From Escherichia coli (GTDB lineage Bacteria; Pseudomonadota; Gammaproteobacteria; Enterobacterales; Enterobacteriaceae), in assembly GCF_003991155.1 (NCBI RefSeq), contig NZ_CP031293.1: a DNA stretch of 64,000 nucleotides; one strand, 5' to 3'. This document shows positions 45,530 to 54,844 of this stretch, piece by piece. Each line of letters begins with the position of its first letter. Position 1 is the stretch's first letter. The notes under the pieces are model-generated. The model saw nothing but the letters and a program-made list of their open reading frames with translations. It was not told the origin of the DNA and made no database searches. The translations under genes were made by a program, and so were the position numbers.

Positions 45530-46813
45530 ATGGCTGATACAAAAGCAAAACTCACCCTCAACGGGGACACAGCTGTTGAACTGGATGTGCTGAAAGGCAC
45601 GCTGGGTCAAGATGTTATTGATATCCGTACTCTCGGTTCAAAAGGTGTGTTCACCTTTGACCCAGGCTTCACTTCAACCGCATCCTGCGAATCTAAAATT
45701 ACTTTTATTGATGGTGATGAAGGTATTTTGCTGCACCGCGGTTTCCCGATCGATCAGCTGGCGACCGATTCTAACTACCTGGAAGTTTGTTACATCCTGC
45801 TGAATGGTGAAAAACCAACTCAGGAACAGTATGACGAATTTAAAACTACGGTGACCCGTCATACCATGATCCACGAGCAGATTACCCGTCTGTTCCATGC
45901 TTTCCGTCGCGACTCGCATCCAATGGCAGTCATGTGTGGTATTACCGGCGCGCTGGCGGCGTTCTATCACGACTCGCTGGATGTTAACAATCCTCGTCAT
46001 CGTGAAATTGCCGCGTTCCGCCTGCTGTCGAAAATGCCGACCATGGCCGCGATGTGTTACAAGTATTCCATTGGTCAGCCATTCGTTTACCCGCGCAACG
46101 ATCTCTCCTATGCCGGTAACTTCCTGAATATGATGTTCTCCACGCCGTGCGAACCGTATGAAGTTAATCCGATTCTGGAACGTGCTATGGACCGTATTCT
46201 GATCCTGCACGCTGACCATGAACAGAACGCCTCTACCTCCACCGTGCGTACCGCTGGCTCTTCGGGGGCGAACCCGTTTGCCTGTATCGCAGCAGGTATT
46301 GCTTCACTGTGGGGACCTGCGCACGGTGGTGCTAACGAAGCGGCGCTGAAAATGCTGGAAGAAATCAGTTCCGTTAAACACATTCCGGAATTTGTTCGTC
46401 GTGCGAAAGACAAAAATGACTCTTTCCGCCTGATGGGCTTCGGCCACCGCGTGTACAAAAATTACGACCCGCGCGCCACCGTAATGCGTGAAACCTGCCA
46501 TGAAGTTCTGAAAGAGCTGGGCACCAAAGATGACCTGCTGGAAGTGGCTATGGAGCTGGAAAACATCGCGCTGAACGACCCGTACTTTATCGAGAAAAAA
46601 CTGTACCCGAACGTCGATTTCTACTCTGGTATCATCCTGAAAGCGATGGGTATTCCGTCTTCTATGTTCACCGTGATCTTCGCGATGGCGCGTACCGTTG
46701 GCTGGATCGCCCACTGGAGCGAAATGCACAGTGACGGTATGAAGATTGCCCGTCCGCGTCAGCTTTACACCGGCTACGCGCAGCGTGATTTTAAGTCGGA
46801 TATTAAGAAGTAA
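45530..46813 (+). CDS. gltA: Citrate synthase
   Basis: 427 aa, matching GltA ([23 protein letters not shown]). Confidence 0.97.
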
Positions 46814-46826
46814 AAATGACACCGAC

Positions 46827-46856
46827 AAAACCCTGCGTGTTCACGCAGGGTTTTTA
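46827..46856. terminator. Bidirectional terminator between gltA and the TRAP dctM gene
   Basis: aaaaccctgcgtg-ttc-acgcagggttttt hairpin, 14 nt after the gltA stop and 4 nt before the dctM stop. Confidence 0.8.
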
Positions 46857-46859
46857 GTT

Positions 46860-48170
46860 CTACACCAACAGCAAAGATATTGCCGGGATATAGGTAATAA
46901 CCAACAGCAGTAAAATAAGACTAACCAGTAGTGGCACCGCTTCTCGCATAAATTGCCCGACAGAAACCTGCACGGTATTACATACCAGCAGCATCACCGT
47001 TCCGACAGGCGGTGATAACGTTCCTAACGATAAGTTGAGGATCATGATGATGCCAAAATGCACCGGATCAATGCCAAAATGAGCCACCACAGGTTTAAGT
47101 AATGGAACTAATATCAGCAGGATGGCACTACCTTCAAGAAACATGCCAAGCACCAGCAGCAATAGATTGATAATCAATAAAAAGACGTATTTATTATCAG
47201 TCAGAGATGTCACAAACTCCGCAACCGTGATACCTGCCCGCTCAAGGGAAAATATCCAGCCCAGCGCGGCACTCGCCATAATGATTAACATGACCGATGC
47301 CGTCGAACGCGCCGTCTCTGAGAGTGCTGTAAATACATGGCTGATTTTCAGTTCGCGATAAATTACAAAACCAATAAACATCACCAATAATACTGCTACG
47401 GCTCCAGCTTCCGTTGGCGTAAAGATATTTGCCCGAATACCACCGATAACCGCAACAATTAAGAACAGTGCTGGCCAGGCCTGCACCAGCGCCACTGACA
47501 CTTCTTTCGGTTTTGGCCAGTGTTCGCTGGAAGGTTTTAAACCGCGCCGAATAGCTACCAGCCATACAGTGACAATCAACATGGCGGAACACAGCAGACC
47601 GGGCAGGATCCCGGCCATAAACATGGAGCCGATGGAGACATCCGCCACCAGTCCGTAAAGGATCAGTGCAATACCCGGTGGAATAATTGGTGTAATCAGC
47701 GAACCACTTGCCGTTATCGCCGCCGCAAAGCCACGGGAATAACCTTTCTGTTCCATTTCCGGCACCATCATGCGCGATAACATCGCAGCATCCGCCAGGT
47801 TTGAGGCGCTAACGCCGCCCATCATGGTACTGACCAGAATATTAGCCCCACCCAGACCACCGCGCATTCTGCCAATCAACACGTTGGCAATTTGCAAAAT
47901 ACGCGCGGCAATACCGGTATAGCTCATTAACGTGCCTAATAAGATAAAAAATGGAATAGCTAACAGCGAAGGGGTTTGCGTCGTGGCAATCAAACGCTGA
48001 ATTGCTACCATTAACGGCACATTTGAATAGCAAAGGAAGTAGGTCAGAATGCCGCAAAACATCGCCAGCCATACCGGCATATTGATAAATAAACAGATGA
48101 ACATAAGCGGAATGATCATTAGCCAGTTATCCAGCCAGCTTCCCGCCAGTAATTCACTCAATGCTGTCAT
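46860..48170 (-). CDS. TRAP transporter large permease (DctM family)
   Basis: 436-aa polytopic protein. TAATG overlap with the upstream DctQ gene. Confidence 0.9.
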   Translation of the reverse strand: MTALSELLAGSWLDNWLMIIPLMFICLFINMPVWLAMFCGILTYFLCYSNVPLMVAIQRLIATTQTPSLLAIPFFILLGTLMSYTGIAARILQIANVLIGRMRGGLGGANILVSTMMGGVSASNLADAAMLSRMMVPEMEQKGYSRGFAAAITASGSLITPIIPPGIALILYGLVADVSIGSMFMAGILPGLLCSAMLIVTVWLVAIRRGLKPSSEHWPKPKEVSVALVQAWPALFLIVAVIGGIRANIFTPTEAGAVAVLLVMFIGFVIYRELKISHVFTALSETARSTASVMLIIMASAALGWIFSLERAGITVAEFVTSLTDNKYVFLLIINLLLLVLGMFLEGSAILLILVPLLKPVVAHFGIDPVHFGIIMILNLSLGTLSPPVGTVMLLVCNTVQVSVGQFMREAVPLLVSLILLLLVITYIPAISLLLV

Positions 48171-48631
48171 TATTCACCTTCCTTGCGTGGCGTTTTCTTG
48201 ATCAGGTGTAAGGCAGTAAAACAGGCGATACCGATTGCACCAACCGTGACCGCAATATCGATCCAAAACCAGGATATTTTTAATATTTGCGTGGTTTTAA
48301 ATGCTGTTCCGGCAGCTAATTTCCATGCTGACCAAGCCATCACACTCAGTAAAACAATAGATATCAGAGAGACAAATAACGTTAAAACACGTTGCACGCG
48401 TGGTGTCAGTGCATCAGCTAAAAATGGAATCGACAAATGGGTATTATCCCGCTCGGCAACGACCGCACCAAACATGACTACCCAAATCATTAATAAACCG
48501 GAAACCTCTTCTGTCCACTGTAATGGCATATGAAAACAGTAACGCATTATTACCGCAGCAATGGTCATGATTACCAATATAAAGAGCGTTAATACCGCAG
48601 CAACTTCAATCATTTTCCCTAAAAGACGCAT
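48170..48631 (-). CDS. TRAP transporter small permease (DctQ family)
   Basis: Start trimmed to ATG 48631 (GAGG upstream). 153 aa, 4 TM segments. Confidence 0.85.
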   Translation of the reverse strand: MRLLGKMIEVAAVLTLFILVIMTIAAVIMRYCFHMPLQWTEEVSGLLMIWVVMFGAVVAERDNTHLSIPFLADALTPRVQRVLTLFVSLISIVLLSVMAWSAWKLAAGTAFKTTQILKISWFWIDIAVTVGAIGIACFTALHLIKKTPRKEGE

Positions 48632-48690
48632 AAACACCTCTGCTCTTAACGGTCGGTGCCGAAACACCGACCAGTCCTTATGCCATGAAG

Positions 48691-49659
48691 TTATTTCAGC
48701 TGTTGCTGAATAGTGTCATACAAACCAGGGGTCCATTCCGGGAATTGTTGATAGACTTTTAAGGCTTTTTCTTTGAAAGGGGCGACGTCAGGATAGATAA
48801 TTTCCACGCCCTGCTCCTGCATGGTTTTCAACATTGTCGCATCCTGCTCAGTGGTAATTTTCTGGCTATATAAACCAGCTTCATACGCTGTCTGGTGAAT
48901 AATATCTAACTGCGCAGGTGTCAGGGTACTGAAAAACGCTTCACCACCCAACCATAATGATGTATTGGTCAGATAGTTCACCATTGACAGATATTTCGCC
49001 TGCTCATGCAGTTTTTGCCCATACAGAACAGAAACCGGGTTTTCCACACCATCGATCATCCCCTGCGTCAGCGCCGGATAAACGTCTCCCAGCGGCATTG
49101 GCGTTGGGGTTGCGCCCATTGCTTCAATGGCTTTAATCTGCATAACGTTATTCGGCACGCGGATCTTCATCCCTTTCAGGTCTTCAGGTGTACGAATCGG
49201 TTTTTTAGCAATGATCTGCCTGGTACCGTACAGATAGTTGCTCATGACAATATGCACACCTTTTTCCCGTAGTTTCTGTTCTTTTTGTTTAAACCAGTCA
49301 CTGGCATAAATCGCAAACAGTTTCTGCGGATCTTCGGTTAAATAAGGCCCAAACAATATTCCCAGGTCTGCATCGTAGTCAGTTAAAAATCCCACATCAC
49401 TGATGGTGATAATATTCATCCCCATCAACGCTTGTTCAGTAATATCTTGTTTAGAACCTAACTGTGAACTTGGGTAAAGTTCGAAAACAATATCTCCATT
49501 GCTTTTTTTCTTCACAAGTTCTGCCCAGTGCTTCACTACTGTATCCGCTGGCTCGCCGGGGTTACTTTCATAGGCGATTTTGATAGTTACCGGTGCGGCA
49601 TTCAGCATCGGACTAAATAAAGCGAAAAGAAATAAAAGTGGTGTCAGTAATTTTTTCAT
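48691..49659 (-). CDS. TRAP transporter periplasmic solute-binding protein (DctP family)
   Basis: 322 aa with signal peptide MKKLLTPLLFLFALFSPMLNA|AP and DctP-like architecture. Confidence 0.9.
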   Translation of the reverse strand: MKKLLTPLLFLFALFSPMLNAAPVTIKIAYESNPGEPADTVVKHWAELVKKKSNGDIVFELYPSSQLGSKQDITEQALMGMNIITISDVGFLTDYDADLGILFGPYLTEDPQKLFAIYASDWFKQKEQKLREKGVHIVMSNYLYGTRQIIAKKPIRTPEDLKGMKIRVPNNVMQIKAIEAMGATPTPMPLGDVYPALTQGMIDGVENPVSVLYGQKLHEQAKYLSMVNYLTNTSLWLGGEAFFSTLTPAQLDIIHQTAYEAGLYSQKITTEQDATMLKTMQEQGVEIIYPDVAPFKEKALKVYQQFPEWTPGLYDTIQQQLK

Positions 49660-49686
49660 TATTATTACCTGTAAGAGCTTTATCGA

Positions 49687-50883
49687 TTAACGGGGATCTG
49701 CCCGACAGACTGCACTTTTGCTGTAATCAAATGCTTTATACGTTAAAACAAACTCCTGATGTTCCAGTCGTTCTGCGGCACAATATTGACCGTTGGCGAC
49801 ATGTTCAATCACCTGCATAATATCGTCTGCAATATCGTCGAGCGTTGCGCCTTCGCTAATTACACGACCGGCATTAACGTCCATATCGTCAGATAAATGC
49901 TCCCACGTCTGCGGGTTATTACACACTTTAATAATAGGAGCGATCACTGAACCAATAACTGAACCGCGACCTGTGGTAAATAACACCATATGACAGCCAG
50001 AGGCGATAAGTTCCAGTGCTTCTGAGGAATCGTTAATATTCGGATACCCAAAACGAGGTTCACCATCAGGCACCACGTCCATCAACCAAAGCCCAGGAAA
50101 GGGCGTTTGTTGCGTCGGCAAAATAACGCCAGCAATCAGCGCATCGCCCGACTTGGTATAAGCCCCAAGGGATTTTTCTTCCTGAGTGGTTAAGCCGCCT
50201 TCAGCATTACCATTAGAAAAACTCCCCAGCCCCATCAAACTGTAATAACGTTCGGCTTTTGCCATTGCCACTTCGATGGCATCACGTGCCTGCGAACTAG
50301 CCGCGCGCGACATCATATGCTGCTCACAACCAAGCAACTCACCGCTTTCTTCAAAAATACAGGTAGCCCCTTTCTCCAGCAGTTGGTCAAAGGCACGTCC
50401 TACTGCCGGGTTACCCGTGATACCACTGGTGCCATCGGAGCCACCGCAGATAGTACCAACCACCAGGTCGCTCCAGTTCAGGATACAACGCGGTGTATCC
50501 GCAAGCTGTTCCAGCATTTCAGCGACCAACTGCTTACCCAGAGTAATGGTGTTGGTCGTGCCTTTATTTTCCTGAATGACCAGCGTATGGCACGGTCGCC
50601 CACTTTCTCGTACTTCTTGCTCCAGCCGACGGCGATCAAAATTCTCGCACCCCAGCGAAATAATCAGTACACCACCTACGTTGCTATGAATCGCCAGATT
50701 TTTTACCAGACGATAGCCATAATCGCTGGGATAACAACCTGAAAAACCAAAATACTGCACGTCGTGACAAGGAAATCCTTCGGCAATCTTTTTAGCGACA
50801 TGGCTGGCACACTCCACCATAAAGATTACCTGCACAGTATTACGAATACCCGGTCGACCATTTTGCCGTACATAACCTTCCAT
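49687..50883 (-). CDS. UxaA-family sugar-acid dehydratase, large subunit (UxaA C-terminal domain)
   Basis: 398 aa. MEGYVRQNGRPGIRNTVQVIFMVEC is the characteristic GY.R..G..GIRN start of the altronate/galactarate dehydratase catalytic domain. Confidence 0.85.
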   Translation of the reverse strand: MEGYVRQNGRPGIRNTVQVIFMVECASHVAKKIAEGFPCHDVQYFGFSGCYPSDYGYRLVKNLAIHSNVGGVLIISLGCENFDRRRLEQEVRESGRPCHTLVIQENKGTTNTITLGKQLVAEMLEQLADTPRCILNWSDLVVGTICGGSDGTSGITGNPAVGRAFDQLLEKGATCIFEESGELLGCEQHMMSRAASSQARDAIEVAMAKAERYYSLMGLGSFSNGNAEGGLTTQEEKSLGAYTKSGDALIAGVILPTQQTPFPGLWLMDVVPDGEPRFGYPNINDSSEALELIASGCHMVLFTTGRGSVIGSVIAPIIKVCNNPQTWEHLSDDMDVNAGRVISEGATLDDIADDIMQVIEHVANGQYCAAERLEHQEFVLTYKAFDYSKSAVCRADPR

Positions 50884-51194
50884 TATGCTTTTTCCTCTGG
50901 CTGATAGCCGGCATCATCATGATGAAAAATGGCGATGGCATTGCTGGCAAGATTATGGGAATGCACATGTTCACCCATGGCAATATCGCGAGTGGCGTGT
51001 CCGATAATGGCGCCGTATTTCAGAATCGAATCACCATTGTTCAGCGCTTCGCAGGCCAGTTTGTGACCCAGGGTAACGGAACTACAGGCCACCATTTCCC
51101 CCTCATCCCACCAGACAATATCGCCACTGGCGATGTCATTCAGCGCGACTACACAGTTATCTTTGGCATGTAGCTTTAACGCACGTTTGCGCAT
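50883..51194 (-). CDS. UxaA-family dehydratase small subunit (SAF domain)
   Basis: Start trimmed to ATG 51194 (GGAGG 4 nt upstream). 103 aa; MRKRALKLHAKDNCVVALNDIASGD is like the UxaA N-terminal SAF domain. TAATG overlap with the large subunit. Confidence 0.8.
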   Translation of the reverse strand: MRKRALKLHAKDNCVVALNDIASGDIVWWDEGEMVACSSVTLGHKLACEALNNGDSILKYGAIIGHATRDIAMGEHVHSHNLASNAIAIFHHDDAGYQPEEKA

Positions 51195-51208
51195 AATTCC
51201 TCCGTACA

Positions 51209-51964
51209 TCAGAAGCCGATCAATGCGCCGCCATCCACCACCAGCACCTGACCACTGACAAATGCCGCTGCGTCTGAAGCCAGATAAACCGCAGCCCAAC
51301 CGATATCTTCCGGCTTGCCGAATTTTTTCATCGGTGTCCGCCCCAGGATTTTGTTACGGCGTTCGTCATCACCTTCAATGGCCTTACGCAACATTGGTGT
51401 ATCGATCCAGCCTGGCGCAATACCGTTGACGCGAATCCCATGAACGGCAAGCTCCGTGGTCATACCGCGAATCATGCCGAGATAGGCTGACTTCGCTGCG
51501 CTGTAGCCAGTAACCAGAGGCTGCCCAAGAAATGAGGTCATCGATGCAGTAAAAAGCACACAGCCTTGACCGCGTTGTTTCATATGCGGCACCAGCGCTT
51601 TGGTTAACGCAAATGCGCCGACTACGTGAACGTCGAGTACTGACTCAAAATCACTGACGCTCATCTCTTCAATCGGTTTTTTGCAGTGATTGCCTGCGTT
51701 ATTGACCAGGATATCGATAGCCCCGTGTTCGCTAATAAGCGCATCAACTTTTTCCTGCGCGGCTGCGGTATCCCCGACATCCATTTGTATCCAACTGGCC
51801 TGCGACCCCAATGTTCCGGCGGTCGCTTGCGCCAGCTCGCCGTTCAGGTCAGCAATAATGACCTTCGCCCCGCTGACTATCATGCATTTCGCCATTGCCA
51901 GCCCCAGCCCACTGGCTGCACCGGTGATCAACGCGGTTTTGTTATGTAAAGAAAAAGCATTCAT
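51209..51964 (-). CDS. Short-chain dehydrogenase/reductase
   Basis: 251 aa with TGAASGLG cofactor motif and YSAAKSA (YxxxK) catalytic motif. Confidence 0.9.
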   Translation of the reverse strand: MNAFSLHNKTALITGAASGLGLAMAKCMIVSGAKVIIADLNGELAQATAGTLGSQASWIQMDVGDTAAAQEKVDALISEHGAIDILVNNAGNHCKKPIEEMSVSDFESVLDVHVVGAFALTKALVPHMKQRGQGCVLFTASMTSFLGQPLVTGYSAAKSAYLGMIRGMTTELAVHGIRVNGIAPGWIDTPMLRKAIEGDDERRNKILGRTPMKKFGKPEDIGWAAVYLASDAAAFVSGQVLVVDGGALIGF

Positions 51965-51975
51965 GGTGTCGCTCC

Positions 51976-52989
51976 TTAAAGGTCAATGAGGATTTTGGTA
52001 TACGCGCCGGGATCACTTGCCCAGTCGCTAAAAGCATGATCAGCCTGTTCCAGCGGGTAGTGAGCACTCACCAGATTGCTGACCGGATAACGCCCGGACT
52101 CCATCAATGCCAGCACGGCACGAAAATCCGCCACGGTGGCATTGCGCGAACCACGGATATCCAGTTCTTTCATCAGGAACTGCGCACTCTGATAACTCAC
52201 TGGCTGTTTGGCGTAACCGACATAAACCACACGACCGCTAAACGCCACCAACCCTGTAGCCTGTTCAATGGTTTGTTGATTACCCACCGCTTCAATCACC
52301 ACTTCCGGGCCGCGACCGTCATTTAACAGCACCAGTTCTGCCGCCACGTCACATTGCTGCGAATTAAGAAAACGTTGCGCACCGCATTCCAGGGCAATGT
52401 TCTGCTTGCGATCATCAATATCGATAGCAATTACGCGCGCCCCCATGGCGGATGCCGCGGCGATAGCGCCAAGGCCAATTACCCCACAACCGATAACTGC
52501 GACCCATTCACCCACATTAATTTGCGCACGTCTGGCCGCATGTAGTCCCACGGCCAGCGGTTCTACCAGCGCTAACTCATCAACACTTAAGGCATTACAG
52601 ACAATGACTTTATGTGCAGGCATCGTCAGTTGTTGCGCCATCCCCCCCTGACGTTGCACACCAAGAGTTTGGTTGTTTTTACAGGCGTTAGGACGACCGC
52701 TCAGACAGGAGCTGCACACGCCACACTCAGTGCAAGGCAGAACGACCACCCGGTCACCTGGCTTGATCGCCCCTGCCATATCGCCAGTTGCCAGCACCGT
52801 GCCGCCAATTTCATGCCCCGGAATACAGGGATAATTAACCAGCGGATTCAGTCCCCGCCATGTATTGAGGTCAGAACCACACAGTCCGACACGCTCAACA
52901 TTGATTAGCACTTCTCCTTTACCGCAGACAGGTTCGGGGATATCAACAAATCGCGCCTGACTTCCCTGCTCAATGGTTAATGCCTTCAT
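51976..52989 (-). CDS. Zinc-dependent medium-chain alcohol/polyol (aldonate) dehydrogenase
   Basis: 337 aa with the GHEIGG catalytic zinc motif, the CTECGVCSSCLSGRPNAC structural zinc site and a GCGVIG Rossmann motif. Confidence 0.9.
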   Translation of the reverse strand: MKALTIEQGSQARFVDIPEPVCGKGEVLINVERVGLCGSDLNTWRGLNPLVNYPCIPGHEIGGTVLATGDMAGAIKPGDRVVVLPCTECGVCSSCLSGRPNACKNNQTLGVQRQGGMAQQLTMPAHKVIVCNALSVDELALVEPLAVGLHAARRAQINVGEWVAVIGCGVIGLGAIAAASAMGARVIAIDIDDRKQNIALECGAQRFLNSQQCDVAAELVLLNDGRGPEVVIEAVGNQQTIEQATGLVAFSGRVVYVGYAKQPVSYQSAQFLMKELDIRGSRNATVADFRAVLALMESGRYPVSNLVSAHYPLEQADHAFSDWASDPGAYTKILIDL

Positions 52990-53001
52990 TCATTGCTCTC
53001 C

Positions 53002-53688
53002 TTACATTACGCCGAAGGTTTCAAAGGCCTGTACCGTGCTCATGCCATCACTGATGGCTTTGCGCACTTCACTTTCAGTTGCCACTTTTTCCAGGGCCTG
53101 GGTAATAACTTCTTTCTCAACAACCTGGGGAATAATCAGTAATCCATCACGATCACCAAACACGATATCGCCCGGATTCACCCGCACGCCGTGAAATTCA
53201 ATAGGTACGCCGAAGTCGATGACCTTGCCGCGCGGACCTTGATCTTGTGCGTAAGTGCCATGACAAAAGGTGGGAAATTTCAATTCAAGAATTTCAGCAG
53301 AGTCACGGGCGTAACCATCGAGTACCGCACCTGCTGCTTTCAGATGCATGGCACGGGTAGACATCAACCCGCCCCACAAGGCATAGCGCAGAGAGCTGCC
53401 CGTAGTGATGTAAACATCGTTCTCTTTGAGGGCATCCAGCGCTTCAAACATGATGCCAAACGGTTTTTCGCCAATCGCCGTCTTACCCGACGTCGATTTG
53501 GTTTCGTAAACGTCCGACTCCAGCACCGGCATTGCCCGGCCTGCCACCACCGTATTCACATCCAGCGGCTTGATTGCCGGAGAAACAAACTGGTGCATAT
53601 AGCCCAGCGTGTCGAGAATATCGCCAACCACGGCGGTAAATAGCCGGGTTTTCATCAAAGCAAAAAGTTCGTTATCACTCTTCCACAT
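53002..53688 (-). CDS. RraA-family protein of the long class (HMG/CHA-type pyruvate aldolase / oxaloacetate decarboxylase-like)
   Basis: Start trimmed to ATG 53688. 228 aa with a GGLMSTRAMHLKAAGAVLDGYARD core typical of the RraA/aldolase fold. First gene of the operon. Confidence 0.78.
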   Translation of the reverse strand: MWKSDNELFALMKTRLFTAVVGDILDTLGYMHQFVSPAIKPLDVNTVVAGRAMPVLESDVYETKSTSGKTAIGEKPFGIMFEALDALKENDVYITTGSSLRYALWGGLMSTRAMHLKAAGAVLDGYARDSAEILELKFPTFCHGTYAQDQGPRGKVIDFGVPIEFHGVRVNPGDIVFGDRDGLLIIPQVVEKEVITQALEKVATESEVRKAISDGMSTVQAFETFGVM

Positions 53689-53695
53689 TATTTTC

Positions 53696-53728
53696 ACCCT
53701 GTAAGCCTGTTTAACAGGTTTACAGGGT
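53696..53728. promoter_or_regulatory. 33-bp near-perfect palindrome, candidate GntR-family operator or leader hairpin
   Basis: ACCCTGTAAGCCTGTT-T-AACAGGTTTACAGGGT matches in 15 of 16 arm positions. The core TGTTTAACA fits the GntR GT-N-AC type. It ends 8 nt before the operon ATG and overlaps its SD. Confidence 0.5.
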
Positions 53729-53951
53729 AAGGAGAAAAAGCGCACAATACTGCGAAGGGCGTCACGAAAAAGTTGTGTATTTACTATTTCTTCGCCACTC
53801 TTTCACACAATATGTCTTTGATTCGCACTGCATGGCGGGCGCACAGGCGCAGTAGTCTATTGATAATCAAGGGTTCTGGAGGAAAATATGAAGGATACAG
53901 TCCCGGTATTCTGGATTTTACCGACCAGGAAAAAGTACAACAGGAGTAAAA

Positions 53952-54665
53952 ATGAGTGAGAGTGCGTTATTGACCAGCGTAACGTTATCGTCACAGGTCA
54001 AAAATCATATTCTTAATCTGATCGCCGAACAAAAATTGACACCGGGGATGCCAGTTCCCAGTGAAATTCAGTTGATTCAGAAATTGGGCGTCAGTCGGGG
54101 TATTGTGCGTGAGGCCTATCGTTCACTTGCCGCCCTGGGGATTCTGGAAACGCACAGCGGTAAAGTGCCACGGATCAAAAAATTTGATGATGAAGTGCTG
54201 CGCGTGGTGTTTGGATTTGCCCTGGCGACCGAACAAGTAACAACAGAGCAAATTCTTCAAGTACGTCGCTGGCTAGAGTTGGGCGTTGTGGAAGCTGCTG
54301 CCCGTAATGGCGGAGAAGAAGATTTTGCTAACCTACGGGCTGAAATGGCAAAAATCCGCGAACAGTTCGATGATGTCGAAAGCTTTATCACCCATGACAT
54401 CCGCTTCCATCAGTTACTCGCCGTTGCCTCAAAAAATCCGCTTTTTATGATGTTATTGCAGGCATTACATCAGCAATTGCGGCAATCCATCCAGGAGGGA
54501 TTAAACGCCCAAAGCGATCAGAAAGAGTATGGCAATCACATCATCACACTACACCAGAAAATCTGCGACGCTGTGTGTGCCAGAGATGTCGAAACGGCGA
54601 CTCAAGCCATGAAATCACACTTCGACAGCCCGGTCAGTGCACTGATCAATAATTCCTCGCCATAA
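53952..54665 (+). CDS. GntR/FadR-family transcriptional regulator
   Basis: 237 aa with AGGAG SD, an N-terminal wHTH (PSEIQLIQKLGVSRGIVREAYRSL) and an all-helical FCD-type C-terminal domain. Divergent from the TRAP operon. Confidence 0.9.
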   Translation: MSESALLTSVTLSSQVKNHILNLIAEQKLTPGMPVPSEIQLIQKLGVSRGIVREAYRSLAALGILETHSGKVPRIKKFDDEVLRVVFGFALATEQVTTEQILQVRRWLELGVVEAAARNGGEEDFANLRAEMAKIREQFDDVESFITHDIRFHQLLAVASKNPLFMMLLQALHQQLRQSIQEGLNAQSDQKEYGNHIITLHQKICDAVCARDVETATQAMKSHFDSPVSALINNSSP

Positions 54666-54844
54666 GACTTATTTCAGTTCAATCGTTTACTCTTCCCTCT
54701 TTTACAAATGAGAGGGAGACAACGGTACTTAATACGCCCTTTAGCCAAAATCTGTCTTTTTCTTGATTACCGCTATTTTTTCGTTGAGGCGCATTCTTTA
54801 TGCTGTATCGATACACCAAAGGTAAGTTAAACAGGGAGTGACGG

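Follow-up and report, generated by a model that had tools for sequence, protein, structure and literature searches.

Which compound is broken down by the enzymes that some Escherichia coli strains encode between gltA and abrB, and by which route? The window considered here is the whole stretch of DNA analysed (64 kb), and checks of ORFs and domains identify at 46860-54665 eight intact minus-strand genes opposite a divergent GntR/FCD regulator. All nine ORFs were found at the coordinates given in the initial annotation, and the gene identities claimed there are borne out by domain matches for each ORF. The features are as follows:

46808..54755, no strand, variable segment in place of K-12 ybgOPQD, between gltA and abrB (blastn junctions against K-12)
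46860..48170, minus strand, dctM, TRAP large permease, 436 aa (PF06808, 364 bits; TIGR00786, 389.8 bits)
48170..48631, minus strand, dctQ, TRAP small permease, 153 aa from the PGAP start (PF04290, 104 bits; RefSeq annotation)
48691..49659, minus strand, dctP, periplasmic solute-binding protein with signal peptide, 322 aa (PF03480, 220 bits)
49687..50883, minus strand, large subunit of a split UxaA/GarD-family sugar-acid dehydratase, 398 aa (PF04295 and PF20629; GD_AH_second and GD_AH_C)
50883..51194, minus strand, small SAF-domain dehydratase subunit, 103 aa from the PGAP start (PF08666, SAF)
51209..51964, minus strand, classical SDR, 251 aa (PF13561 and PF00106, adh_short)
51976..52989, minus strand, Zn-dependent medium-chain dehydrogenase (Zn-ADH), 337 aa (ADH_N and ADH_zinc_N)
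53002..53688, minus strand, RraA/HMG-CHA-aldolase-fold protein (RraA-like), 228 aa (PF03737, 110 bits)
53696..53728, no strand, 33-bp palindrome, predicted operator of the GntR/FCD regulator (inverted repeat, 16-nt arms)
53952..54665, plus strand, GntR/FadR-type regulator with FCD effector domain, 237 aa (PF00392 and PF07729)

Neighbouring genes of the operon are separated by 11-59 nt or overlap by 1 nt, as do dctQ and dctM or the SAF subunit and the start of the large subunit. The TIGR00786 score of dctM exceeds the cut-off of 268 bits, and RefSeq also annotates it as TRAP transporter large permease. For identical DNA in strain 2016C-3878 the RefSeq annotation agrees and carries no pseudogene flags; the starts chosen by PGAP leave somewhat shorter genes than the longest ORFs would give for the RraA-like protein (longest ORF reaching 53745), the SAF subunit and DctQ (reaching 48667).

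The gene order at this site in K-12 is abrB-ybgO-ybgP-ybgQ-ybgD-gltA, with a ybg segment of 5.3 kb. Collinearity with K-12 in blastn extends to window position 46807 and resumes at 54756, and the segment in between has a GC content of 48.5% versus 50.5% for the window. The earlier statement that the operon replaces ybgOPQD holds with respect to K-12, as these junctions indicate, but not in general, as Escherichia albertii and Escherichia whittamii hold both modules in tandem; the two states of E. coli suggest a single hot spot at which either one module or the other was retained. Of the 5426 complete E. coli genomes, 660 (about 1 in 8) have the full operon, and the recurrence of this combination of enzymes in Serratia, Uliginosibacterium, Mesorhizobium, Devosia, and Manganibacter shows that the arrangement is no chance grouping.

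The regulator scores under the cut-offs for NanR, LldR, GlcC, UxuR, and ExuR. An inverted repeat was detected at exactly the positions where the palindrome had been noticed, with arms of 16 nt that are 94% complementary and 1 nt between them. Its core, CCTGTTnRACAGG, occurs a single time in the window, and the same palindrome lies 5' of the RraA-like gene wherever an orthologue of the regulator (57-62%) occurs, i.e., in Serratia, in an E. coli MFS-type locus, and in Citrobacter braakii. Given this four-locus footprint, we regard the palindrome as a conserved operator.

The substrate, unknown according to the initial annotation, can be narrowed to L-galactonate and probably L-fuconate from the relation of DctP to PDB entry 4OVT and from the UxaB/UxaA context of its orthologues. 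DctP is ~70% identical (68% in a pairwise alignment; phmmer E 1e-142) to the protein in 4OVT (Ochrobactrum anthropi Oant_3902), its AF2 model (pLDDT 89) finds 4ovt_A as the best Foldseek match and 4o8m as the next, and its Arg147 is unchanged across 38 orthologues. We take L-fuconate and L-galactonate to be the ligands named in the PDB titles of these two structures. According to a review, L-fuconic as well as D- and L-galactonic acids are among the ligands of TRAP binding proteins of Vetting et al. (2015).

Among 80 loci with an orthologous DctP (62-98% identical), 51 encode a UxaB-like tagaturonate reductase, mostly together with full-length UxaA and in many cases with a Zn-ADH orthologue; in Brucella and Azospirillum such orthologues (47-52%) adjoin DctP along with UxaB/UxaA. 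UxaC is encoded neither at any of the 80 loci nor in the E. coli operon. At UxaB-rich loci without UxaC, D-tagaturonate must therefore come from the oxidation of L-galactonate, as it does with LgoD/UxaB/UxaA in K-12. The SDR (11 of the 80 loci) never occurs together with UxaB (Fisher p 3e-6, uncorrected for phylogeny), and this comparative context supports the view that in the E. coli-type operon the SDR stands in for UxaB and split UxaA for full-length UxaA; at the Tropicimonas locus L053 a split-UxaA orthologue is found together with UxaB and Zn-ADH. The C. braakii cluster shares with the E. coli operon its operator, orthologues of the regulator (60%), of RraA (74%) and of the SDR (78%), and a split UxaA, and it possesses UxaC where the E. 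coli operon has the Zn-ADH, which supports UxaC as an alternative feeder step to the same keto-uronate. An apparent exclusivity of RraA and KdgK among loci was not significant (p 0.59).

The Zn-ADH shares 35% identity across 314 residues with LgoD of K-12 and is proposed to be an L-galactonate/L-fuconate 5-dehydrogenase. The closest curated or solved relatives of the SDR are of the gluconate 5-dehydrogenase, KduD, and FabG types, and it is 75-78% identical to proteins of Uliginosibacterium and C. braakii. Asp39 at the end of β-2 suggests NAD(H) as its cofactor, and we propose it as a candidate D-tagaturonate (5-keto-aldonate) reductase. The small SAF subunit of the dehydratase aligns to the N-terminus of full-length UxaA, and both subunits are fused in Uliginosibacterium and apparently also in Geminicoccus. 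Four invariant cysteines of the large subunit (C25, C50, C79, C146) align with full-length UxaA and are reported as conserved in UxaA/GarD enzymes (PMC6336799). Orthologues of the large subunit (52-67% identical) occur in Uliginosibacterium, Snuella, Bacteroidales, and Antarctobacter.

The RraA-like protein is below every NCBIfam cut-off, with 53-61 bits where the LigK models require 179-304 and 42 bits where 136 are required by the RraA regulator model, whose profile of 161 positions compares with a length of 228 aa. Its motif G107-x20-R128-D129-x2-E132 fits the catalytic Arg and the metal-binding Asp of HMG/CHA aldolase. Orthologues with 59-82% identity in Proteobacteria and Bacteroidota adjoin sugar-acid dehydratases, the gene being recurrently adjacent to those of the UxaA, UxuA, and enolase types. 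In the literature we found no experiment on proteins of the operon or on close orthologues of the RraA-like protein. From fold and motif we only infer that it would be a class II pyruvate aldolase acting on a 2-keto-3-deoxy acid, and the label "non-phosphorylative" for the route is equally tentative; the absence of a kinase and of Eda from the operon is confirmed by its gene content. Such a route had been called unusual for E. coli. This does not apply to non-phosphorylative keto-deoxy-acid aldolases as such, of which E. coli has GarL, RhmA, and YjhH/YagE, but an RraA fold in this role would be new.

From genomic context we infer the substrate and the steps of import, oxidation, reduction, and dehydration, and we see about an even chance that the operon is an accessory, repressor-controlled catabolic set for L-galactonate, probably also for its 6-deoxy analogue L-fuconate. 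DctP would capture the sugar acid in the periplasm and DctQM import it, the Zn-dehydrogenase would oxidise C5 to give D-tagaturonate (5-keto-L-galactonate), and the NAD(H)-type SDR, taking over the job of UxaB, would reduce it with opposite stereochemistry to D-altronate. Split UxaA would then dehydrate D-altronate, and the RraA-fold protein might cleave the product as a Mg2+-dependent class II pyruvate aldolase to pyruvate and D-glyceraldehyde (or lactaldehyde). Dehydration may simply yield ordinary KDG, for which core KdgK/Eda would be an alternative drain; a 6-deoxy product offers no C6 hydroxyl for phosphorylation, and the presence of an aldolase gene in the operon would thereby be accounted for. 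Repression by the GntR/FCD protein at the 33-bp palindrome would be lifted once it binds an intermediate of the pathway. The order oxidation, reduction, dehydration, already proposed in the initial annotation, is well supported by the UxaB/UxaA neighbours, by the exclusivity of SDR and UxaB, and by the UxaC swap in Citrobacter. Against this reading, the route would be redundant for L-galactonate, as E. coli already has LgoT/LgoD and UxaB/UxaA, and in Uliginosibacterium the module adjoins a canonical UxaA-UxaB-KdgK set, which is odd if both sets yield KDG.

That neighbour would be non-redundant if the operon had two branches, with the Zn-ADH feeding L-galactonate as D-tagaturonate to core UxaB/UxaA/KdgK/Eda and split UxaA making 2-keto-3-deoxy-L-fuconate (L-KDF) directly from L-fuconate, which we consider rather unlikely. 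The L-fuconate branch might end with an aldolase giving pyruvate and L-lactaldehyde, the latter being already handled by E. coli with AldA and FucO, or else the SDR might serve as 4-dehydrogenase, with C-C hydrolysis by the RraA-like protein in place of the FAH-type 2,4-diketo-3-deoxy-fuconate hydrolase. Dehydratase orthologues (52-62%) indeed occur in L-fuconate/L-fucose settings, in Antarctobacter with an L-KDF 4-dehydrogenase (8XWK, E 2e-101) and a 2,4-diketo hydrolase (8GSR, E 2e-96) and in Snuella beside a GH29 fucosidase; direct dehydration of L-fuconate is expected there, which counts against the single L-galactonate route. Heteromeric UxaA-type L-fuconate dehydratases have been described (PMC6336799), and PMC5507952 describes loci with lgoD that combine L-fuconate and L-galactonate genes, as well as a TRAP system of dual specificity. 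Furthermore, between E. coli and C. braakii RraA and SDR (74-78%) are far better kept than the dehydratase (42%), which fits an action after dehydration because the stereochemistry at C2/C3 is lost by then. However, two branches give no role to UxaC of the C. braakii cluster and leave the SDR/UxaB exclusivity unexplained, the SDR of E. coli does not belong with the L-KDF dehydrogenases (its matches at E<=1e-40 do not include 8XWK), and all type-B loci have Zn-ADH and SDR side by side, as in the C5-epimerising pairs IdnD/IdnO and LgnH/LgnI.

It is improbable that the RraA-like protein is no retro-aldolase for the keto-deoxy acid of the pathway and acts instead as a dehydratase/decarboxylase like FlDet of Flavobacterium sp. 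UMI-01, as an oxaloacetate decarboxylase, or as an RNase E-type regulator, the operon then yielding KDG for KdgK/Eda, which are core genes in E. coli. FlDet, a 2-keto-3-deoxy-glucarate dehydratase/decarboxylase and not an aldolase, is the sole member of the RraA family characterised with a keto-deoxy sugar acid as substrate, and it shows that the fold is capable of other sugar-acid chemistry. The Geminicoccus locus has the pathway (Zn-ADH, SDR, UxaA', TRAP), with no RraA-like gene found within the 20 kb fetched, and in Antarctobacter a different RraA subfamily lies beside a complete dehydrogenase/hydrolase route. But FlDet is only 29% identical and the operon lacks an aldehyde dehydrogenase for a semialdehyde product, while score and length set the protein apart from the RraA regulator, the catalytic Arg-Asp motif is retained, and its gene, the first of the operon, closely accompanies dehydratase genes across a number of phyla. 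A substrate outside the L-galacto aldonates, be it a hexuronate, another aldonate like L-gulonate or L-idonate, or a sulfonate cleaved by a SuyAB-like lyase, seems very improbable. The Zn-ADH/SDR pair would also suit L-idonate or L-gulonate chemistry, and the sulfolactate sulfo-lyase SuyAB is among the split UxaA homologues; but SuyAB is reported to lack the four cysteines kept in the dehydratase (PMC6336799), UxaC is absent from the operon and from the 80 DctP loci, and the similarity to 4OVT and the prevailing neighbours UxaB and UxaA both indicate the tagaturonate/altronate series.

Several known systems resemble parts of this operon. The Brucella/Ochrobactrum-type locus of Oant_3902 shares the binding protein and its fold, an adjoining Zn-ADH orthologue (49% identical), and a GntR regulator, the latter only ~26% identical to that of the operon, but it encodes UxaB-like and full-length UxaA proteins and neither SDR nor RraA-like protein. 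In IdnD/IdnO of E. coli and LgnH/LgnI of Paracoccus sp. 43P, adjacent oxidising and reducing dehydrogenases invert C5 of an aldonate; however, their substrates are L-idonate and L-gluconate, and these routes end in a kinase and KDPG/KDPGal aldolase without an RraA-fold protein. LgnH/LgnI of the lgn operon are followed by a dehydratase of the UxaA family, LgnE (PMC12632266). The L-fuconate dehydratase of Paraburkholderia mimosarum (A19U_RS0100650/655), compared by description, is likewise a two-subunit UxaA-family enzyme. Non-phosphorylating L-fucose routes, in whose clusters orthologues of the large subunit sit, finish with L-KDF 4-dehydrogenase and FAH hydrolase or with a DHDPS-type aldolase, and none is reported in the literature to use an RraA-fold enzyme. 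FlDet is activated by Mg2+, unaffected by EDTA, and reported as inactive on KDG; it differs in its neighbouring α-ketoglutarate-semialdehyde dehydrogenase, absent from the E. coli operon. HMG/CHA aldolase (LigK/GalC, PDB 3NOJ) and RraA share with the RraA-like protein the PF03737 fold and the Arg-Asp catalytic/metal motif, but its context is sugar-acid degradation, whereas theirs is the cleavage of aromatic rings or the control of RNase E. K-12 degrades L-galactonate by means of LgoT and LgoD, followed by UxaB, UxaA, KdgK, and Eda, and the proposed route would share its first three reactions, in which a Zn-dependent MDR enzyme oxidises C5, the product is reduced to D-altronate, and a member of the UxaA superfamily carries out the dehydration. 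It differs in having a TRAP system for the MFS transporter, an SDR for the mannitol-dehydrogenase-family UxaB, a split dehydratase (large subunit 28% identical to UxaA), and a single operon with its own GntR regulator and an added RraA-fold protein. The operon is of an ordinary type, the exception being its final enzyme, which comes from an uncharacterised RraA/aldolase branch.

Eight consecutive open reading frames occupy the minus strand from 53745 to 46860, and a single plus-strand ORF lies at 53952-54665. In this order, Pfam assigns to the eight an RraA-like domain, ADH_N plus ADH_zinc_N (Zn-ADH), SDR, SAF, GD_AH_second plus GD_AH_C (the body of altronate/galactarate dehydratases), DctP, DctQ, and DctM. 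Several complete E. coli chromosomes are 100% identical in DNA to the operon region and carry the same nine RefSeq genes between gltA and abrB, without pseudogene flags. The segment is flanked by gltA, sdhCDA, abrB, nei, and pxpABC. ORFs, Pfam domains, and RefSeq annotation thus agree with the gene set and the gltA-abrB location of the initial annotation.

In E. coli K-12, the order at this site is abrB-ybgO-ybgP-ybgQ-ybgD-gltA, and blastn aligns the window collinearly with K-12 up to 46807 and again from 54756. Between these junctions lies one feature:

46808-54755, variable segment, with 5.3 kb of ybg fimbrial genes as its counterpart in K-12 (blastn)

Among 5426 complete E. coli genomes, 660 (about 12%) contain the whole operon. 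These carriers form two allele groups, one of 113 genomes at at least 99% identity and another of 547 at 95-99%. DNA of ybgOPQD occurs in 4763 of the complete E. coli genomes, and the two separate counts add up to 5423, suggesting that both modules are alternative states. In E. whittamii the order is gltA-ybg-operon-abrB, and in E. albertii and a divergent "E. coli" it is gltA-operon-gntR-ybg. In these three genomes (comparison loci L005:13062-18450, L006:1-4539, and L007:1-4269), ybgOPQD-like genes with 67-76% DNA identity to K-12 are therefore situated beside the TRAP operon in two different orders. As both modules occur together in these Escherichia relatives, the gltA-abrB gap appears to be a two-module hot spot at which E. 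coli lineages mostly retain one module or the other, and the two E. coli states may be due to differential loss or to recombination at one hot spot. The proposal that the operon replaces ybgOPQD holds relative to K-12, where the blastn junctions support it, but not in E. whittamii and E. albertii, which carry both. The GC content is 42-48% in the transporter genes (46860-49659) and 53-54% in the dehydrogenase genes (51209-52989), at a window average of 50.5%, and this contrast may reflect a mosaic origin of the operon.

The divergently transcribed regulator belongs to the GntR/FadR subfamily, with a GntR winged helix (PF00392) at its N-terminus and an FCD domain (PF07729) at its C-terminus. 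An inverted-repeat scan of the 263-bp divergent region detected one repeat of at least 10 nt:

53696-53728, palindrome, ACCCTGTAAGCCTGTT t AACAGGTTTACAGGGT

Its core has a single occurrence in the 64-kb window. Orthologues of the regulator (57-62% identical) are encoded in Serratia, at a second E. coli locus with an MFS transporter, and in Citrobacter braakii, and at each of these loci a single matching palindrome lies upstream of the gene for the RraA-like protein. An approximate consensus is CCTaTAaACCTGT-N3-ACAGGTtTAtAGG with the centre CTGT-N3-ACAG in four related loci, and a GT-N3-AC core is typical of GntR-family sites. The palindrome therefore seems to be a good phylogenetic footprint of the predicted GntR/FCD operator. 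In E. coli, 7 nt separate its end from the start codon of the RraA-like gene; in the related loci it is located 73-147 nt upstream. As RNA (53675-53745, minus strand), it is predicted to form a hairpin of -29.4 kcal/mol (z -5.4) beside the ribosome-binding region. The promoter and terminator scan found no promoter match on the operon strand, and its sites were no more numerous than in shuffled sequence.

The three TRAP components are encoded together and match PF03480, PF04290, and PF06808, with NCBIfam scores of 175 for TRAP_S1 (cut-off 50) and 390 for the dctM model TIGR00786 (cut-off 268). In about 800 other E. coli genomes there is another gene for a TRAP large permease, whose DNA is about 72% identical to dctM (window positions 46950-47981). 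The best PDB match of DctP is 4OVT (E 1e-142, about 68-70% identity), followed by 4O8M. An AlphaFold model built from a 38-orthologue alignment (pLDDT 89, against only 42 for the single-sequence model) also has 4ovt_A, titled Ochrobactrum anthropi Oant_3902, as its top Foldseek match. We take 4OVT to be bound to L-fuconate and 4O8M to L-galactonate. A review includes L-fuconic and L-galactonic acids among the TRAP binding-protein ligands of Vetting et al. (2015), and a TRAP system with dual L-fuconate/L-galactonate specificity is cited in a further paper. The review also describes a conserved Arg in the binding site of TRAP proteins; Arg147 of DctP, invariant in the alignment of 38 orthologues, is a candidate for this residue, which would pair with the carboxylate of the ligand.

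For the genomic context of DctP, 80 loci from GTDB species genomes with DctP proteins 62-98% identical were scored with reference proteins. UxaB-like genes are present at 51 of the 80, and the Brucella UxaB-like protein belongs to the NCBIfam "tagaturonate reductase" subfamily with a score under the cut-off. Most of these 51 loci also encode full-length UxaA, many encode a Zn-ADH that shares 47-52% identity with that of E. coli, and none encodes UxaC. UxaB and UxaA together with an LgoD-like dehydrogenase and no isomerase correspond to the known L-galactonate route. The context of the orthologue loci thus supports L-galactonate as the probable ligand of DctP, and the ligands presumed for the two PDB entries point to L-fuconate and/or L-galactonate.

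Zn-ADH possesses Cys37/His59/Glu60 and the Cys-rich segment CTECGVCSSC in addition to its two Pfam domains; the fold is that of a Zn-dependent MDR enzyme, and the ligands of both the catalytic and the structural zinc are present. It is 35% identical to the L-galactonate 5-dehydrogenase LgoD of K-12, which possesses lgoT, lgoR, and lgoD, and its orthologues at 47-52% identity adjoin UxaB, UxaA, and TRAP genes. SDR orthologues (49-98% identical) are encoded at 11 of the 80 DctP loci, none of which is among the 51 with UxaB (Fisher p 3e-6, uncorrected for phylogeny). Such exclusivity would be expected of an SDR that stands in for UxaB as tagaturonate reductase. The closest curated and solved relatives of the SDR are the sugar-acid C5 enzymes gluconate 5-dehydrogenase and KduD, and it has the acidic residue characteristic of NAD(H)-dependent enzymes. 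An identity as L-KDF 4-dehydrogenase of the 8XWK/BDH2 kind was discarded, since 8XWK and 2AG5 are missing among its matches at E<=1e-40; by contrast, the SDR of an Antarctobacter MAG matches 8XWK at 2e-101 and 2AG5 at 4e-85.

In the dehydratase, the SAF and both GD_AH domains are divided over two overlapping ORFs, which are fused in Uliginosibacterium. In a five-sequence alignment with a full-length UxaA among its members, the large subunit shows four invariant residues, C25, C50, C79, and C146. Four Cys, the proposed iron ligands, are reported to be conserved in UxaA/GarD enzymes and not in SuyAB (PMC6336799), and a SuyAB-like sulfolactate lyase was discarded in view of the conserved Cys set. 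The galactarate dehydratase GarD was also rejected (TIGR03248, 163 bits at a cut-off of 731). The split dehydratase is only 28% identical to K-12 UxaA, which falls short of orthology, so that only analogy and context would speak for a role as altronate dehydratase. Relatives with split or fused subunits are 52-67% identical to it. In Tropicimonas its orthologue is situated beside UxaB and Zn-ADH, and in Geminicoccus beside Zn-ADH, SDR, and TRAP genes; the 20 kb of sequence covered at that locus contain no RraA-like gene.

Two further loci contain the split dehydratase in other company. In the Antarctobacter MAG (comparison locus L069:4095-11661), the genes that follow the orthologous TRAP system encode an RraA-like protein from a different subfamily, the split dehydratase (52% identical), the 8XWK-type SDR, and an FAH enzyme that matches L-2,4-diketo-3-deoxyrhamnonate hydrolase 8GSR at 2e-96. 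Dehydratase, SDR, and FAH enzyme together make up a full "route III" L-fuconate set, to which the RraA-like gene is an addition. A glycan-utilisation locus of Snuella sedimenti (L004:3350-13513) contains two RraA-like genes of different subfamilies, the first preceding the split UxaA, an MFS transporter, and a GH29 alpha-L-fucosidase, the second (65% identical to the E. coli protein) preceding an SDR gene and one for a dehydratase of the enolase superfamily. The configuration at C2-C4 is common to D-altronate, L-galactonate, L-fuconate, and D-arabinonate (PMC6336799), so that one dehydratase clade could serve any of the four acids.

The enzyme set recurs with different transporters. With an MFS sugar-acid transporter it is encoded in Serratia and at the second, rare E. 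coli locus, which in a few genomes lies between aceBAK and metA (L093:7977-14425) and contains an RraA-like gene (77% identical), Zn-ADH, SDR, split UxaA, and a regulator and operator of the operon's type. With TRAP genes it is present in Uliginosibacterium and at five alphaproteobacterial loci; for high-GC loci, the reading frame of gene calls was chosen by GC3. The cluster of C. braakii encodes a regulator (60% identical to that of E. coli), an RraA-like protein (74%), an SDR (78%), and a more distant split UxaA (42%), together with a sugar transporter and UxaC and without Zn-ADH. The same keto-uronate can be reached through UxaC or through an LgoD-type dehydrogenase.

Assignment of the RraA-like protein is the least certain part of the operon. 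With none of the curated models does it come near the cut-off. It scores 53.5 with the LigK model TIGR02798 (cut-off 304.5) and 60.7 with NF006731 (cut-off 179), and membership in the HMG/CHA aldolase (LigK/PcmE) equivalogs was therefore rejected. The RNase E regulator RraA was rejected likewise, since NF006875 yields 42.4 bits (cut-off 136), the protein has 228 aa instead of about 161 aa, and the match extends only over residues 108-210. Its closest solved relatives are uncharacterised or distant. In HMG/CHA aldolase, Arg-123 is essential and catalytic and Asp-124 binds the metal (PMC5065237). The RraA-like protein retains G107-x20-R128-D129-x2-E132, in which R128-D129 corresponds to Arg-123/Asp-124, so that the Arg-Asp pair is present; this mapping covers the Arg and the Asp, the second metal ligand of HMG/CHA aldolase being Glu-199. 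Conservation among its orthologues is unusually high, with 59-82% identity across Gamma-, Beta-, and Alphaproteobacteria, Flavobacteriia, and Bacteroidales. In E. coli, Serratia, Mesorhizobium, and a Bacteroidales MAG, the neighbouring sugar-acid dehydratase is the split UxaA; Ensifer has UxuA in this position, and Snuella an enolase-superfamily enzyme. Adjacency to dehydratases of three folds fits an enzyme acting on 2-keto-3-deoxy acids, and the simplest reading would be a class II pyruvate aldolase.

More broadly, and with somewhat less than even confidence, we propose that the RraA-like clade might be a new family for 2-keto-3-deoxy (and 6-deoxy) hexonates, either a class II RraA-fold aldolase or a C-C hydrolase replacing FAH, at the non-phosphorylative end of L-galactonate, L-fuconate, or hexuronate catabolism. 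Exclusivity between RraA-like and KdgK genes, taken as a sign of an aldolase bypass, was not significant. FlDet, the only characterised sugar-acid member of the RraA fold, is a KDGR dehydratase/decarboxylase and was discarded as a functional model because of 29% identity and the lack of an aldehyde dehydrogenase (alpha-KGSA type) in the operon. The 501-position NCBIfam model PRK12764 ("fumarylacetoacetate hydrolase family protein") has an RraA-like C-terminal part, matched by the product of 53002-53688 at positions 340-475. Natural FAH-RraA fusions thus seem to exist, which hints at a functional link between the two folds. Searches of the open full-text literature found no link of the RraA family to fucose or these pathways and no useful match to the operon's protein accessions.

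For the pathway, the enzyme steps would follow the order of oxidation, reduction, and dehydration, as in the initial annotation, and the locus contexts, i.e., UxaB/UxaA neighbours, SDR/UxaB exclusivity, and UxaC in C. braakii, support this order. L-Galactonate would be oxidised to D-tagaturonate by Zn-ADH, reduced to D-altronate by the SDR, dehydrated, and cleaved by the RraA-like protein. This linear route may also accept L-fuconate, yielding 6-deoxy-KDG, which is not phosphorylatable at C6, so that an aldolase would be necessary. That non-phosphorylative cleavage should be unusual for E. coli was an overstatement, since GarL, RhmA, and YjhH/YagE already perform it; only the RraA fold would be new for such a cleavage in E. 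coli.

A serious rival is a two-branch model, in which Zn-ADH feeds L-galactonate to the core UxaB/UxaA pathway and the dehydratase, SDR, and RraA-like protein process L-fuconate. Split-dehydratase orthologues do occur in unmistakable L-fuconate/L-fucose settings as well, in Antarctobacter and Snuella, and the Uliginosibacterium module adjoins a canonical UxaA-UxaB-KdgK set, which argues against simple redundancy. The two-branch model leaves unexplained, however, why Citrobacter encodes UxaC and why SDR and UxaB exclude each other.

If the linear route is right, about 12% of sequenced E. coli, as well as E. albertii, E. whittamii, and Serratia and Citrobacter relatives, would possess a high-affinity system, complete in itself, for L-galactonate and perhaps also for L-fuconate. 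Both acids arise by oxidation of L-galactose and L-fucose from plants and mucus, and such a system could confer a niche advantage in the gut. Should the reading of the RraA-like protein be true, a sizeable minority of E. coli, along with other gut bacteria, would have a previously unrecognised pathway end. For enzymology, this RraA-like clade is large, well conserved, and uncharacterised, and its context provides a testable list of substrates; SDR and split dehydratase would add two cases of non-orthologous displacement, of UxaB and UxaA, and the conserved 33-bp operator offers a direct way to search for the effector. In other respects the operon is an accessory sugar-acid operon of an ordinary kind, a sound target for enzyme discovery and no surprise.

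By the evidence of genes and context, the workings of the operon would resemble those of the K-12 L-galactonate pathway and of the C5-epimerising systems IdnD/IdnO and LgnH/LgnI/LgnE. It differs in its TRAP importer, in two non-orthologous displacements, an SDR in place of UxaB and a split UxaA in place of UxaA, and in an extra RraA-fold enzyme, a putative aldolase.
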